A stretch of DNA of 64,000 bases, from positions 32,001-96,000 of the forward strand of contig CAVXWP010000014.1 in NCBI GenBank assembly GCA_963765495.1, given 5' to 3'. Below are positions 33,012-36,746 of the stretch, one piece after another. The notes under the pieces were generated by a model, which worked only from the letters and a program-made list of their open reading frames with translations, did not search any database and had not been told where the DNA came from. The position numbers were made by a program, and so were the translations under genes. This DNA comes from Blastocatellia bacterium. Lineage in GTDB: Bacteria; Acidobacteriota; Blastocatellia; UBA7656. Numbering within the stretch: the first letter of the stretch is position 1; every line of letters begins with the position of its first letter.

Positions 33012-34384
33012 CAGGAGAGACGGCTTATCTCATCAAGGTAGCGCACAAACATCTTTATGCCGCCCCGCGCCATCTGCCAGTCGAAATTTTCATTCTTGGC
33101 GTGATAGCCGTGTTCCGGCAACGACAGCCCGAGGAAAACCACGGGCGCTTTCAGATGCTTTTTCATGGTTACCACAGCACCGATTGATCCGCCCTCGCGC
33201 GTGAAGGCGGGCTGGCGTTTGAAGGCGAATCTCATCGCTTCGCTCGCCGCGTCGGCGTAAGGCCCTTCAAACTCGCCGAGGTAGGGTTCGAGCGCCGATT
33301 TGTATTCGCATTTTACATCGGGATTTTTCAGACGAACGAAATCGCGGATCAGCCGGAAAACCTTCTTCGCATCCTGATCGGGAACGAGCCTGCAACTGAT
33401 CTTGGCCTGAGCGCGGAATGGCACTATCGTCTTTACCCCCGGCCCCTGATAGCCGCCCGTTATCCCGTGCACTTCAAAAGTAGGCTCGGCCATGATGGCC
33501 TTCAACACGCGCTCGGCATCGTCAAAACGCAGCTTTTTCAATTCGTGCGCCGCCTTGAATTTCTTTGTCGTAAACCCGGAATCCAGAAAGCTCTGTAACT
33601 CCTTTTTAGTCGCGCGTCGCACGTCATCATAAAACCCTTTGACCTTCACGCGCCCCGTATCTGCGTCATAGACCTCGGATATGACCTTGCACAGTTCGCC
33701 CAGAGGGTTTCGCGCCGGGCCGCCCGTCAGTCCCGAATGCACGTCTTTTGCGCCCGTCTCAAGCGTCATGGTCATCATCATCGCACCGCGCAATCCGTAG
33801 GGCACCGCCGGGCGCGCGCGCGAAATCCATATCGTGTCGCTCACAAGCACGGAGTCGGTTCCCAACCGTTCACGATTTGCCTTGATGAAGTGCTCGAAGT
33901 TTGGACTGCCTATCTCTTCTTCAAGTTCCCAGATGAAATTTATGTTTATGGGGACCCGATTTTCCGCAGCGTAGCGCGCACCCATCAGGGCGGCGAGCGC
34001 CGGACCCTTGTCATCGGTCGTGCCCCGGCCTTCGTAACGGTCGCCTTCTTTGAAAAATGTGAACGGAGCCTTATTCCACTCCTCGGCATCAGCAGGCTGC
34101 ACATCAATGTGATTATAGATGGTCACGGTCGGATTATTTGCCCCCGCCTCTATGCGGCCGAATACGACGGGGTTTCCGGGAGTCTCTACCACCTCGGCCC
34201 GCGCGCCGATTGACTCAAGATAATCGCGGGCAAGAAGCGCACCCTTGCGGCAATCCTCTTTGTGATCGGGGTCCATGCTGATGGTTGGGATTTCGACCAA
34301 TGCTGCGAGCTTTGATTCGAATTCCTCGCGCCGGTCGCGTACATACGAATCGAGATGTTCGTACAACTTCGATTTTTCTGCCAT
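33011..34384 (-). CDS. M20 family dipeptidase (ArgE/DapE/Dug-like)
   Basis: [28 protein letters not shown]. Confidence 0.92.
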
Positions 34385-34494
34385 ATTTGTCGCGGTGTCT
34401 CCTTGATGTTAGCTGCCCGGCCATTATGATAACCACCTTCCGGCACTGTCAAGCTAGCCCGCAAACCGATCCGTCATCCGTGCCCCGTGATCGA

Positions 34495-34638
34495 GGCCAT
34501 TTAATTCTCAGAAAACTACAGTCTGCTTAATGAACTCTCTTAGCGAGCTTTGCGTCTTTGCGTCTTTGAAACTACCTGTTGCTTCGCAAGACGCAAAGAC
34601 GCAAAGCCCACTAAGATGTCCCTGAGAATTTAATGACC
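34495..34638. repeat. Nested inverted repeat (outer ~17-bp IR, inner CTTTGCGT octamer arms)
   Basis: ggccatttaattctcag..ctttgcgtctttgcgtctttg / caagacgcaaagacgcaaag..ctgagaatttaatgacc. Confidence 0.8.
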
Positions 34639-34684
34639 CTGCGCTGCGATGAAACCTGAACGACCCTGACCCTCTCATCCTGCC

Positions 34685-34734
34685 TTGACTTTATGATTTC
34701 AATGATGTATAAGATTTATATAAATTTTATATAA
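34685..34734 (+). promoter_or_regulatory. Sigma70 promoter overlapped by three tandem 8-bp boxes (candidate operator)
   Basis: TTGACT-N17-TATAAG; ATGTATAA (34705), TTATATAA (34716), TTATATAA (34727). Confidence 0.7.
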
Positions 34735-34750
34735 GTGGATTGGTGAGCGG

Positions 34751-34945
34751 ATGCAGAAGAAGAAAGTCAGGACATACTCGGCGACGGACCTTGATATGGC
34801 GATGCTCGAATCGGTTGCGCGTTATCACGGGATGAACAAGAGCGCGACCATAGCGAGTCTGATTCGCAGAGAGTTTTGGAGGATATTCCCTGCGGGGACC
34901 GACAAGATAAAGCCGGATCGCGGGGCGAAGGTGGAGGAACAATGA
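34751..34945 (+). CDS. Small ribbon-helix-helix-like DNA-binding protein
   Basis: KVRTYS strand, helix to LESVARYHG, turn MNKS, second helix ATIASLIRREF; ATGA overlap with nadA. Confidence 0.7.
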   Translation: MQKKKVRTYSATDLDMAMLESVARYHGMNKSATIASLIRREFWRIFPAGTDKIKPDRGAKVEEQ

Positions 34946-35928
34946 GCACTCAACTTATAAATTTCAGCACAGCGGCTGCGCCCGTTTTCGAGAGCGAAAG
35001 GACCGCATTGATGGAAGAGATACGAAAGCTTGCGCGCGAGCGCAACGCCATAATACTGGCGCACAACTATCAGGCGGGCGAGGTGCAGGACGTAGCCGAT
35101 TTCACGGGCGACAGTCTGGGGTTAGCCCTTGAAGCGCAAAAGACCGAAGCGCAACTGATCATATTTTGTGGTGTTCATTTCATGGCGGAATCGGCCAAAA
35201 TACTGAACCCTGAAAAGAAGGTACTGTTGCCAAACCTGGCCGCCGGGTGTTCGCTTGCGGATTCGATCACGCCGGAAAGTCTCGACGAATGGAAGCGCCG
35301 GTATCCGGGTTACACGGTTGTGACTTATGTAAACTCTACGGCGGAAGTAAAAGCCATGAGCGACATCTGCTGCACGTCGGCCAACGCCGTATCGGTGATC
35401 CGTTCGCTCGCGTCGGACAAGATACTGTTTACGCCCGACCGGAACCTGGGCAACTGGGTGAAAAAGCAAGTCCCCGAAAAAGAGATAGCCATTTATGATG
35501 GCGCGTGTCCTACGCACGATGTGCTTCGCGGCGCAAATGTCAGCAAGGCGCAATCGGACTTTCCCGACGCCGTAATCATCGCTCACCCCGAATGCCGCGA
35601 AGACATAATAGCGCTTGCCGACGAGGTCTGTTCTACGACCGCGATGCTCGACCGCATAGCACTTCACCCGGAGGCGAAGACCTTCATAGTGGCGACCGAA
35701 AGCGGGATCGTTCATCAGATGAAGAAGCGTTATCCTGACCGCGAATTCGTCATGGCGGACGGGTGCATAGGCTGCCGCCTGCATTGTCCTTACATGAAAA
35801 TGATCTCGCTTGAAGATGTGCGCCGGTCGCTCATTGAAGATAAGTTCGAAATCACGGTAGAGCCGGATGTTATGGAAGGCGCTCGCCGCGCGCTTGAGCG
35901 TATGCTCGCCGTGCCCAGAGACAACTAG
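34942..35928 (+). CDS. nadA: Quinolinate synthase A
   Basis: ILAHNYQ, GDSL, FCGVHFMAESAK, AGCSLA, TYVNS, CPTH, AHPEC, CPYMK. Confidence 0.97.
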   Translation: MSTQLINFSTAAAPVFESERTALMEEIRKLARERNAIILAHNYQAGEVQDVADFTGDSLGLALEAQKTEAQLIIFCGVHFMAESAKILNPEKKVLLPNLAAGCSLADSITPESLDEWKRRYPGYTVVTYVNSTAEVKAMSDICCTSANAVSVIRSLASDKILFTPDRNLGNWVKKQVPEKEIAIYDGACPTHDVLRGANVSKAQSDFPDAVIIAHPECREDIIALADEVCSTTAMLDRIALHPEAKTFIVATESGIVHQMKKRYPDREFVMADGCIGCRLHCPYMKMISLEDVRRSLIEDKFEITVEPDVMEGARRALERMLAVPRDN

Positions 35929-36026
35929 CAGGGATCGGGGGCCGGGGGTCGGGGGCCAGGGCTACAAATCTCCCAACTTCTAATGGTAAGCGTGAGCAAC
36001 TGTCTGACAACCGGCCCCCAGCCCCC
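35929..36026. repeat. Palindrome with GGGGGCC heptamer arms (related to 60290-60463)
   Basis: gggatcgggggccgggggtcgggggccaggg ... ccggcccccagccccc. Confidence 0.75.
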
Positions 36027-36101
36027 ATTAAAATTCAGACTTTCGAGCTTCTAAACGGGTCTTATGATCGTAGAGGTCTGTTTGGGCCTGAAATCGGAGC
36101 A

Positions 36102-36746
36102 ATGATGAGAAAGCTTTTCATAGCAGGTTGCTTGATGACACTCGTGCTGTCGTTGTCGGCTGAGACAACCTCCGTGTTTGCGCAGCAGAGGAACCCTCGT
36201 CCTAATCGTCGTCAGAATCGCTTTCCCGACATTCAAAGAGGGGAAAATCCTGATATAGATGCGGCGGACCCTCAACTGGAGAGGCGACAGGGAAACCGCA
36301 GACAGGCGGTCAATCAGCAAATCAGACAGCAGATCATGCAGGCTATAGGGCTTACTCCCGATCAGCGTCTTCAAATGGCCGAAATACGTCGCAGCCACGA
36401 TGACGAGATTATCTCTGCCGGTCGGCGCGTGCGCGAGGCTCGCCGGGCGCTGGATCGCGCCATTATGAGCGAAGTCTATGATGATGCGTTAATCAATCAA
36501 CATGCCAGCGTCCTGGCGGCGGCCCAGACCGATATGATCCTTTTGCAGACGCATATACGCAGCCAGGTGCGAAGCGTGCTCACCACGGAACAGGTTCGCC
36601 GATTCAACGATCTTGAGCAGAGATTGCGCCGCCAGCGCCGCCAACAACGCCAGATGCGGCTCAAAGAAGGCCCCCCCGGCATTCCCGGCACGCCCGATGA
36701 TCTGGGAGAGACCGATATTGTCAGCCTGCTGCTTTCCATTCCTTGA
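36102..36746 (+). CDS. Spy/CpxP family periplasmic protein
   Basis: Signal peptide; LTPDQ and LTTEQ (LTxxQ) motifs. Confidence 0.85.
   Translation: MMRKLFIAGCLMTLVLSLSAETTSVFAQQRNPRPNRRQNRFPDIQRGENPDIDAADPQLERRQGNRRQAVNQQIRQQIMQAIGLTPDQRLQMAEIRRSHDDEIISAGRRVREARRALDRAIMSEVYDDALINQHASVLAAAQTDMILLQTHIRSQVRSVLTTEQVRRFNDLEQRLRRQRRQQRQMRLKEGPPGIPGTPDDLGETDIVSLLLSIP

Follow-up and report, generated by a model that had tools for sequence, protein, structure and literature searches.

A 64-aa RHH-like protein encoded with nadA is a candidate local autorepressor of NAD synthesis in Blastocatellia

The DNA analysed here, a 64-kb stretch of a Blastocatellia bacterium genome referred to as the window, contains a small gene that directly precedes nadA and is itself preceded by promoter-like hexamers and a cluster of three short boxes. 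The features of the locus are:

34685..34690, + strand: TTGACT, a -35-like hexamer, read from the sequence
34705..34734, no strand assigned: putative operator array of three 8-bp boxes, based on sequence, shuffles and a position weight matrix (PWM)
34705-34712: box 1 of the array, ATGTATAA
34708..34713, + strand: TATAAG, a -10-like hexamer inside box 1, read from the sequence; presumptive promoter element
34716-34723: box 2, the middle box, TTATATAA
34727-34734: box 3, TTATATAA
34742..34747, + strand: GGTGAG, a possible, weak Shine-Dalgarno-like sequence before the small gene, from the sequence only
34751..34945, + strand: small gene for a 64-aa RHH-like protein, a predicted repressor, from the ORF listing
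34933..34937, + strand: GGAGG, Shine-Dalgarno sequence for nadA within the end of the small gene, read from the sequence
34942..35928, + strand: nadA, encoding quinolinate synthase of 328 aa (Pfam NadA, E 2.4e-119)

The TGA stop codon of the small gene (34943-34945) overlaps the ATG start codon of nadA (34942-34944), giving ATGA. Both the 64-aa ORF with the sequence originally quoted for it and this overlap were confirmed by direct reading and by the ORF listing. The junction of the small gene and nadA, including GGAGG, recurs in most loci of the family of genomes designated f1. The nadA gene at 34942..35928 is the single NadA match in the whole genome.

The original prediction also described a TTGACT-N17-TATAAG promoter overlaid by three boxes in an exact 11-bp register. 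By direct reading, the two hexamers are present with a spacer of 17 nt, and the start-to-start distances of the boxes are 11 and 11 bp. The element was not in the output of a consensus promoter scan because that scan needs a T at the last position of the -10 hexamer, which here ends in G. Most related loci have a TTGAC(A/T/C) hexamer at an equal distance 5' of the boxes, and a TATAA(A/G) or TATATA equivalent is kept in the family f1 loci. On the basis of its sequence and this conservation in relatives, we consider TTGACT-N17-TATAAG to be promoter-like.

The array reads as a palindrome centred on box 2 (inverted repeats I4 and I6). With up to two mismatches allowed, a degenerate 28-nt pattern describing it matched nowhere else in the window (once per strand) and gave 0 matches in 100 dinucleotide-preserving shuffles. 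Moreover, with a PWM built from 33 related sites, the site itself being left out, the array scored 47.9 bits compared with 18.1 bits for the second-best position of the 7.3-Mb genome. Further operator sites were considered as regulon members and rejected, as the best outside scores in the whole genome, 18-20 bits, were not credible; the best outside two-box match falls within a 1219-aa ORF. No array site was found before nadB or nadC in this genome and, therefore, the predicted regulon is the small gene-nadA operon alone. Thus, the suggestion that such arrays recur before nadA, nadB and nadC was borne out for nadA, where the array is conserved together with the small gene, but not for nadB and nadC in this genome.

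At E<=0.01, 468 homologues of the small protein were identified; the 120 matches listed of these 468 have lengths of 63-71 aa. Median dN/dS was 0.094 over 37 usable pairs. Judged from these sequence comparisons, the small ORF is a genuine gene and evolves under purifying selection. In the alignments, invariant residues are spread across the strand, both helices and the tail: the N-terminal segment K-V-R-T-F/Y-S-A and the turn H-G-x-(N/S)-K-S are conserved, and a tail of ~19 residues past helix 2 (F-W-R-x-F-P-x-G-T...P-D-x-G-A) is conserved as strongly as the core.

An AlphaFold2 (AF2) model of the monomer has an extended segment of residues 1-12, in which the strand is unpaired, followed by helices at residues 13-26 and 30-45; together with the alignments, it has the strand-helix A-tight turn-helix B order of the RHH superfamily. 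The best Foldseek matches of this first model were the Rv0298 antitoxin, CopG (32% identity over 38-41 aligned columns), NikA, Arc, MazE, AtaR, TacA, NikR and AmrZ, at E >= 0.28 throughout and thus below significance. In the VIA search, which is independent of Foldseek, RHH proteins made up most of the top 36 rows, with a top Z of 4.7 that is not significant. The four nearest named ESM-Atlas clusters were all RHH families, with scores of 0.91-0.92, and profile searches gave weak matches to Rv0298 (E 0.072) and CopG (E 0.25). Profile rows among PDB sequences for a ribosomal protein (E 0.057) and for KDM5 demethylases (E 0.066), the latter sharing an E-F-W-R stretch with the small protein, were taken as chance matches, none being significant. 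In a second AF2 model, made with a deeper alignment of 68 sequences, the tail folds back on the core and is predicted with higher confidence; this model matched mostly homeodomains, with RHH proteins at ranks 1, 13, 15 and 29, each with E > 2. Of 26 family members, none reached the cut-off of a Pfam or NCBIfam family, including RHH_1, RHH_3, the CopG-like models and the antitoxin models; stray matches below the cut-off were to DUF6290 (E 0.1), aCcr1 (E 0.0048) and RelB antitoxin (E 0.016). The anticipated RHH fold was, therefore, recovered consistently by structure, profile and language-model searches but with weak statistics throughout. Altogether, these models and searches point to membership of the RHH class, each individual score being weak.

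In the class to which the window belongs, 40 of 201 genomes carry the small gene, and in all 40 it adjoins nadA. The NadA clade of the window (>=71% identity) is present in 41 of the 201 genomes, i.e. the same 40 and one genome (G192) in which the end of the contig cuts the small gene down to its final 12 codons; the small gene is absent from the 124 genomes of the class with other NadA types. The small gene is next to nadA in 15/15 loci from other classes of the phylum and linked to nadA in 78/80 loci from other phyla and in 74 of the 76 evaluable metagenome loci. Homologues were thus found where they had been expected, immediately upstream of nadA in almost all of the loci examined; in six loci, nadC comes next after nadA. 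No matches came from a metagenome scan in which the two most distant relatives served as queries.

Four homologue loci in the genome and metagenome sets lack nadA. Two of these are SAR324 orphans from assemblies without a NadA match, and no boxes are recognisable there. One nadA-less homologue lies beside an oxidoreductase fragment. Finally, one homologue with the same conserved tail heads a gene of the isochorismatase family (nicotinamidase-like) and an NAPRTase gene (pncA-pncB) with boxes upstream; nadA was not found within the 4.5 kb available at this locus. Horizontal transfer of the cassette between phyla, considered from a NadA tree, was dropped, the tree being a quick one in which labels mix within tight clades and in which the phylum labels of the metagenome-assembled genomes are those of their submitters.

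Across 185 non-redundant loci, at least one box was present in 165 and a pair at exactly 11 bp in 84; the spacing was 11 bp in 93 of 138 box spacings, while shuffles gave almost none. In family f2 as well as in other classes and other phyla, a separate -10 hexamer precedes the boxes, which, thus, are not merely promoter. Among seven nadA loci without the small gene, none had an array upstream. The phased TTATATAA boxes are, therefore, kept with the gene across classes and phyla and absent at nadA without it, and the expectation that the boxes be conserved holds. In one clade, the strand changes from x-V/I-R-T-F to R-P-R-T-F and the centre box becomes TTACGTAA-like with the 11-bp phase kept. 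Part of the box conservation could reflect shared descent of a gene-boxes-nadA cassette; however, the flanks of the cassette have diverged freely, which runs counter to mere shared descent. In total, we conclude that the small gene is real, conserved and tied to nadA, and that the array in cis is conserved and unique in the genome.

Control of the synthesis of NAD, the vitamin B3 cofactor, is understood in just part of the bacteria, where it involves NadR, NiaR, NrtR, NadQ and two riboswitch classes. In an Rfam scan, the region 33800-36400 gave no match to the NAD+-I riboswitch (RF03013) at E <= 1 and just sub-threshold matches to microRNA families, on a long hairpin at 34530-34623. Across 151 genomes of the class, the NAD+-I riboswitch was not found. 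Family f36 alone had it, in 9/10 genomes, showing that the search works elsewhere in the phylum; the NadA that it precedes there is merely 32-35% identical to that of the window, and none of the 16 small-gene genomes in the sample of other classes belongs to f36. Moreover, neither the 3H domain of NiaR nor the winged-helix domain of NrtR was found in this genome. A literature search at the level of abstracts found no RHH or CopG-type regulator of nadA among them.

The small protein shares with CopG of pMV158 and with Arc/Mnt a size of about 45-65 aa, the order of N-terminal strand, helix, G-x-(S/N)-K-S turn and helix, and a gene that comes first in its operon with an operator overlapping its own promoter. 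The phased palindromic 8-bp boxes at 11 bp fit an RHH operator layout on the cis side, and they also fit the geometry of Arc and CopG sites, in which several dimers occupy one face of the DNA. Unlike these proteins, the small protein has no Pfam RHH match, extends by its conserved ~19-residue tail past helix 2, and has a chromosomal gene with a biosynthetic enzyme rather than plasmid copy number or phage lysogeny as its predicted target; its boxes are perfect 8-bp palindromes, two or three at 11 bp. MetJ and NikR, the latter among the fold matches, belong to the RHH class; they repress metabolic or uptake genes by acting on repeated short boxes and need a co-repressor. Both are larger, with about 105 aa for MetJ and about 130 aa, including a separate metal-binding domain, for NikR, whereas the small protein offers only a short tail for any ligand. 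RHH antitoxins (Rv0298, MazE-mt, TacA, AtaR) were the best structural and profile matches, and in their operons a small RHH gene whose product has a C-terminal tail similarly overlaps the downstream gene; by contrast with type II toxin-antitoxin operons, the downstream gene here encodes NadA and no toxin, and the partner genes at other loci are nadA, nadC, pncA-like and pncB-like genes.

NiaR, NrtR, NadR and NadQ have the role predicted for the small protein, i.e. repression of genes for NAD biosynthesis or salvage. They combine helix-turn-helix or winged-helix domains with 3H, Nudix-like or NMNAT/kinase enzyme domains, none of which is shared with the 64-aa RHH-like protein, which has no Pfam match. 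According to excerpts of the 2008 NrtR paper, NrtR and NadQ cluster with NAD genes (PMC2330246), as does the small-gene family. The NAD+-I riboswitch (nadA motif) of Acidobacteria likewise immediately precedes nadA within this phylum. It differs from the small protein in being an RNA; in excerpts of the paper that describes it, the riboswitch is presumed to turn nadA off at high NAD+ levels (PMC6859854).

Taking fold, linkage and boxes together, we consider the 64-aa protein a likely RHH autorepressor that acts locally, at the operator array, on the small gene-nadA operon. This agrees with the original prediction in fold, nadA linkage and conserved boxes; DNA binding, repression, cooperativity and an effector are properties that we infer for the protein. 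In the proposed mechanism, the paired N-terminal strands (K-V-R-T-F/Y-S-A) of dimers would enter the major groove at every palindromic TTATATAA box. Because 11 bp corresponds to about one helical turn, two or three dimers would lie on one face of the DNA, and dimers on adjacent boxes would probably bind cooperatively. As the array in this genome covers the -10 hexamer and the probable start site together with roughly the first 15 bases of the transcript, its occupancy would exclude RNA polymerase. Since the repressor and NadA would be made from one message by coupled translation, the loop would limit NadA output. A co-repressor, if part of the mechanism, would most likely be a small NAD-pathway molecule (NAD+, niacin or a pyridine nucleotide), perhaps acting through the conserved tail after helix 2; because the protein has no obvious effector domain, this part of the model is a guess, to which we give a little less than an even chance.

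The same autoregulator could function without any effector, with plain negative feedback on the shared message fixing the NadA level and nothing being sensed, as in the autoregulation by plasmid CopG and phage Arc. A protein of just 64 aa with no recognisable ligand domain, a single target in the genome and a tight translational coupling by which the level of repressor reports operon output would all suit such a device. However, the tail is conserved like the DNA-binding core and is predicted with rising confidence as the alignment deepens, a shared metabolic signal better explains the range of contexts including the pncA-pncB operon, and regulators of NAD genes that have been described elsewhere respond to metabolites of the pathway according to excerpts of two papers (PMC2330245, PMC2330246); we therefore regard feedback without sensing as unlikely, though worth keeping in view. 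What is sensed could also be NadA itself, if the tail bound NadA, perhaps in an Fe-S-dependent manner, and the NadA-to-repressor ratio set operator occupancy. Such an antitoxin-like arrangement would match the type II toxin-antitoxin layout of a small RHH gene first, an overlapping second gene and a conserved tail, the RHH antitoxins among the closest structural matches, and the tie of the gene to only one NadA clade in 41/41 genomes. It was also part of the original prediction but found no support, and it is made less likely by the homologue with the same tail that heads the pncA-pncB operon, with no nadA in the 4.5 kb available, and by the presence of the protein in the two SAR324 assemblies without a NadA match. 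A complex prediction for NadA and the small protein, made without controls, had a score of 0.00, the mark being 0.32, and neither supports nor opposes binding. We consider sensing through NadA improbable.

The perfect co-occurrence with one NadA clade would also suit an accessory factor for the assembly, stability or activity of that clade of NadA that does not bind DNA, the array then serving another factor or the promoter, and such a role would accommodate the missing match to a Pfam DNA-binding family, the weak fold statistics and the ambiguous second AF2 model. It leaves unaccounted for that three independent kinds of search return predominantly RHH proteins, that palindromic boxes in an 11-bp phase accompany the small gene even to the pncA-pncB operon, that the boxes are downstream of a separate -10 hexamer in many lineages, and that the change of strand coincides with the change of box in one clade; we consider this role highly improbable. 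Lastly, boxes 2 and 3 would be transcribed if transcription starts just past the -10 hexamer, and another family of the phylum has an NAD+ riboswitch before nadA, so that the transcribed part of the array might be imagined as a leader structure or riboswitch for the operon. No Rfam family matched, however, the putative leader at 34718-34760 folds no better than shuffles (z -0.10), and the boxes are conserved as sequence, made of A and T only, with no paired changes of the RNA-helix type seen; we give an RNA-level element almost no credence.

The RHH autorepressor thus being preferred, the best reading of the family is that of a new family of NAD-pathway regulators of RHH type. A broader and more tentative proposal, which we think somewhat doubtful, is that this is a fifth family of NAD regulators, of RHH type, with a regulator-operator-nadA cassette in at least five phyla and a tail that senses a ligand or NadA. 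Under this broader proposal, 64 residues would make a complete metabolite-sensing repressor, the smallest for the NAD pathway, in which the tail would form a pocket for an NAD-pathway ligand across the dimer; more boldly, by analogy, the tail would read the state of Fe-S NadA as an antitoxin reads its toxin.

The family reaches from Blastocatellia and other Acidobacteriota to Latescibacterota, Gemmatimonadota and some SAR324, Myxococcota-labelled and Planctomycetota genomes. The groups that carry it are abundant and mostly uncultured, in soil and marine environments. The putative operator is a defined 30-bp element and, thus, an easy target in vitro. Its parts, a protein of 64 aa and a palindrome of 8 bp, make this a very small system, which could serve as a model for how a tiny repressor senses a metabolite, if it senses any, and may be of use as a compact genetic switch. 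If the proposal is true, hundreds of proteins annotated as 'hypothetical proteins' would receive a name and a testable function. According to excerpts of the 2008 NrtR paper, the mechanism of NAD control was still unknown in many lineages (PMC2330246); if true, the new type of regulator would fill this gap for Blastocatellia and the other groups that carry it.

The small gene directly precedes nadA, and its TGA overlaps the nadA ATG as ATGA (sequence reading of 34400-36100 and ORF list). The encoded NadA is the sole NadA match in the 7.3-Mb genome. The original prediction described the small ORF, this overlap, a promoter-like site and three boxes spaced by 11 bp, each of which we recovered by sequence reading and from the ORF list:

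34751-34945, + strand: small gene, 64-aa ORF (sequence reading and ORF list)
34942-35928, + strand: nadA, quinolinate synthase NadA (Pfam E 2.4e-119)
34685-34690, + strand: -35-like hexamer TTGACT (sequence reading)
34708-34713, + strand: -10-like hexamer TATAAG, 17 nt after TTGACT (sequence reading)
34705, 34716 and 34727 (starts): three boxes, spacing 11 bp each (sequence reading)

TTATATAA, the middle box, reads the same on both strands, and the 30-bp array as a whole is palindromic around it. A degenerate array pattern with up to two mismatches matched a single place in the window and 0/100 shuffles. The TTGACT/TATAAG pair was not among the matches in a consensus promoter scan of the window because its -10 ends in G; therefore, TTGACT-N17-TATAAG is a candidate promoter on the basis of sequence reading and conservation. 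The Rfam scan found neither an NAD+ riboswitch nor any other Rfam family at the locus, and RNA structure in the putative leader (34718-34760) was no better than chance (z -0.10). A long G+C-rich hairpin 3' of the nadA stop (35937-36026) has no T tail and a stability within that of shuffles (z -1.27), so that it is a doubtful candidate terminator. A nested inverted repeat of 144 bp (34495-34638), with 29-nt arms (93% complementarity) inside 17-nt arms, separates the divergent M20 peptidase gene from the promoter of the small gene; it has sub-threshold microRNA-family matches in Rfam and five further copies in the genome (contigs C6, C8, C1, C10 and C7; 87-95% identity), and has the appearance of a small palindromic element dispersed in the genome.

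The small protein has 468 homologues at E<=0.01, and 38 clusters at E<=0.001 were obtained when representatives at 50% identity were searched exhaustively. Homologues are 63-71 aa long among the 120 matches listed, and those named by any source are named 'hypothetical protein'; Pfam and NCBIfam recognised 0/26 family members. Compared with close relatives, the small gene has a median pairwise dN/dS of 0.094 (37 usable of 62 pairs). In an alignment of 68 sequences covering several phyla, (near-)invariant positions are R7, A11, M18, L19, A23, Y25, H26, G27, K30, S31, L37, E41, F42, W43, R44, F46, P47, G49, P55 and A59. Because these positions reach past helix 2, the tail is conserved to the same degree as the core. 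In total, we conclude that the small ORF represents a genuine and conserved gene whose family so far has no name.

The original prediction assigned the small protein a ribbon-helix-helix (RHH) fold. An AlphaFold2 model from a 21-sequence alignment (model 1; mean pLDDT 75) has an extended N terminus followed by helices at 13-26 and 30-45. Foldseek gave no match to the PDB at E<=0.001 for this model; the top rows, none of them significant, were almost all RHH proteins (Rv0298 antitoxin, CopG at 32% identity, NikA, Arc, MazE, AtaR, TacA, NikR and AmrZ). A VIA search, which is independent of Foldseek and covered 48,161 chains, had a best Z of no more than 4.7; RHH proteins made up the majority of its first 36 rows. 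Similarly, in the ESM Atlas the small protein lies among 30 unnamed clusters, and 4/4 of the nearest named clusters are RHH families (0.91-0.92). Profile searches returned Rv0298 (E 0.072) and CopG (E 0.25). By contrast, a second model from the 68-sequence alignment (pLDDT 75.1) has the tail folded back (pLDDT 82-87) and helix 2 broken, and its Foldseek matches were mainly homeodomains at E > 2, which counts against an RHH fold. Model 2 may, however, have forced the inter-chain contacts of an obligate dimer into the one chain of a monomer model. Thus, model 1, ESM Atlas and profile matches lean towards RHH, each with a weak score; altogether, we consider it very likely that the small protein has the RHH fold, whose defining feature is a dimer with paired strands, both models here being monomers.

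In the class, the small gene was detected in 40/201 sampled genomes (33/49 in family f1, 5/5 in f2, 1/1 in f3 and 0/145 in seven other families). The predicted link of homologues to nad genes held at nearly every locus: the small gene lies directly 5' of nadA in 40/40 class genomes carrying it, nadA adjoins it in 15/15 fetched phylum loci, and nadA directly follows in 78/80 loci from public genome contigs (best 80 of 161 relatives, labelled Latescibacterota, Gemmatimonadota, Acidobacteriota, SAR324, Deltaproteobacteria, Planctomycetota and Entotheonellaceae). Of the first 30 loci, 29 have the ATGA junction; in genome G156, the two genes are split across two contigs. Among 80 metagenome loci, nadA is adjacent in 74 and absent in two, and the remaining four are not long enough to decide. 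Over all sets, nadA is in turn followed by nadC at six loci. A phylum profile search of 401 genomes found the small gene in 16 (families f1, f39, f41 and f77). As kin are not independent, these counts represent one conserved cassette rather than hundreds of separate events. The NadA clade of the window (at least 71% identity) occurs in 41/201 class genomes, i.e. the same 40 and G192, whose contig breaks off 37 bases past the nadA start yet retains the final 12 small-gene codons. The small gene is absent from 124 class genomes whose best NadA match is at most 54% identical, a count that takes in two rows marked unpublished (G199 and G130); 36 further class genomes had no NadA match at E<=1e-20.

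Several complete or near-complete genomes of the same bacterial family as the window lack any NadA (genomes looked at: G016, G097, G123, G011, G026 and G069), and one genus there mostly has another NadA type, an open frame of ~420 aa that aligns well only over the N-terminal half; thus, de novo NAD synthesis is patchy in this group. The NadA clade that accompanies the small gene shows unusually high conservation (66-86% identity across phylum labels) and has nine invariant cysteines, including C-x-x-C-x-x-x-C at residues 275-282; NadA has three cluster ligands, fewer than these nine. Cassettes with 78-86% identity to that of Blastocatellia are present on three contigs from MAGs labelled 'uncultured Clostridia' (L085, L089 and L132); in a quick NadA tree, two of these contigs fall among Blastocatellia, which points to wrong labels or wrong binning rather than to gene transfer.

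The boxes are conserved with the small gene. One or more boxes (up to one mismatch) occur in 165 of the 185 non-redundant loci that have 150 nt or more of upstream sequence, and two boxes exactly 11 bp apart occur in 84; box-to-box spacings are 11 bp in 93/138 and 22 bp in 12/138, and shuffled sequences gave almost none. In f1 and f3 loci, the three-box array lies 17-18 nt after TTGAC(A/T/C) within diverged flanks. With a three-box matrix built from 33 f1/f3-type sites, the window's own site left out, the window site scored 47.9 bits vs 18.1 for the next best in the whole genome; with a two-box matrix it scored 33.4 and 32.7, and the best outside match (20.3) falls inside a 1219-aa ORF. The array is missing at seven nadA loci that lack the small gene (three-box <= -7.2 bits, two-box <= 0.2 bits). 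The original prediction also raised boxes before nadB and nadC; in the window's genome these upstream regions scored below -3, and therefore the predicted regulon here is the small gene-nadA operon alone. A two-box version (TTATATAA, 3 nt, TTATATAA, or near variants) is present in f2 as well as in other classes and phyla, immediately 3' of an ordinary -10 that is distinct from it; thus, the boxes are not simply the promoter. Moreover, in one clade (nine NadA rows in a quick tree, one evolutionary event), the strand reads R-P-R-T-F instead of x-V/I-R-T-F and the centre box is TTACGTAA or TTACATAA with the 11-bp phase kept, a joint change of the kind expected if the strand reads the box.

Some loci lack nadA. 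In SAR324 loci L096 (3495-3713) and L100 (3495-3704), the small gene neighbours Smr, glyoxalase, glycosyltransferase or trehalose-synthase-like genes; TTATATAA boxes were not recognisable, and these assemblies, of unstated completeness, gave no NadA match. In L191, it lies beside a GFO/IDH/MocA C-terminal fragment. In metagenome contig L210 (319-2652), a homologue 62% identical to the window's protein, with the same tail and TTATATAA-like boxes upstream, heads a nicotinamidase-like isochorismatase-family gene (Pfam E 4.7e-35) and a nicotinate phosphoribosyltransferase gene (E 4.3e-34), which is a pncA-pncB salvage operon. This single locus ties the family to another branch of NAD metabolism and makes a regulator of the pathway more likely than a partner specific to NadA.

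We propose that RHH dimers would bind each palindromic box, two or three of them spaced by one helical turn along the same face of the DNA, and would occlude the -10 and start site in the window's genome or, in other lineages, obstruct the region transcribed first; coupled translation of repressor and enzyme would then give negative autoregulation. We regard this mechanism as a whole as likely. That a small molecule of the NAD pathway modulates the predicted repressor is a more tentative suggestion, favoured because the tail is strongly conserved, because one family member would control salvage genes and because neither the NiaR 3H domain, the NrtR winged-helix domain nor the NAD+ riboswitch was found in the window's genome.

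The operators of Arc, CopG, MetJ and omega provide the geometry for comparison, and the small protein is proposed to work like CopG/Arc-type autorepressors. It is probably a member of the RHH superfamily, belongs to none of the curated RHH families and has nothing in common with NadR, NiaR, NrtR or NadQ. The NAD+ riboswitch was found in 0/151 genomes of the class and, within the phylum, only in family f36 (9/10 genomes), where it precedes a NadA only 32-35% identical to that of the window. A full-text literature search, mostly at abstract level, found no description of an RHH regulator of nadA. As a predicted small RHH autorepressor, the small protein would also represent a new family of NAD regulators.
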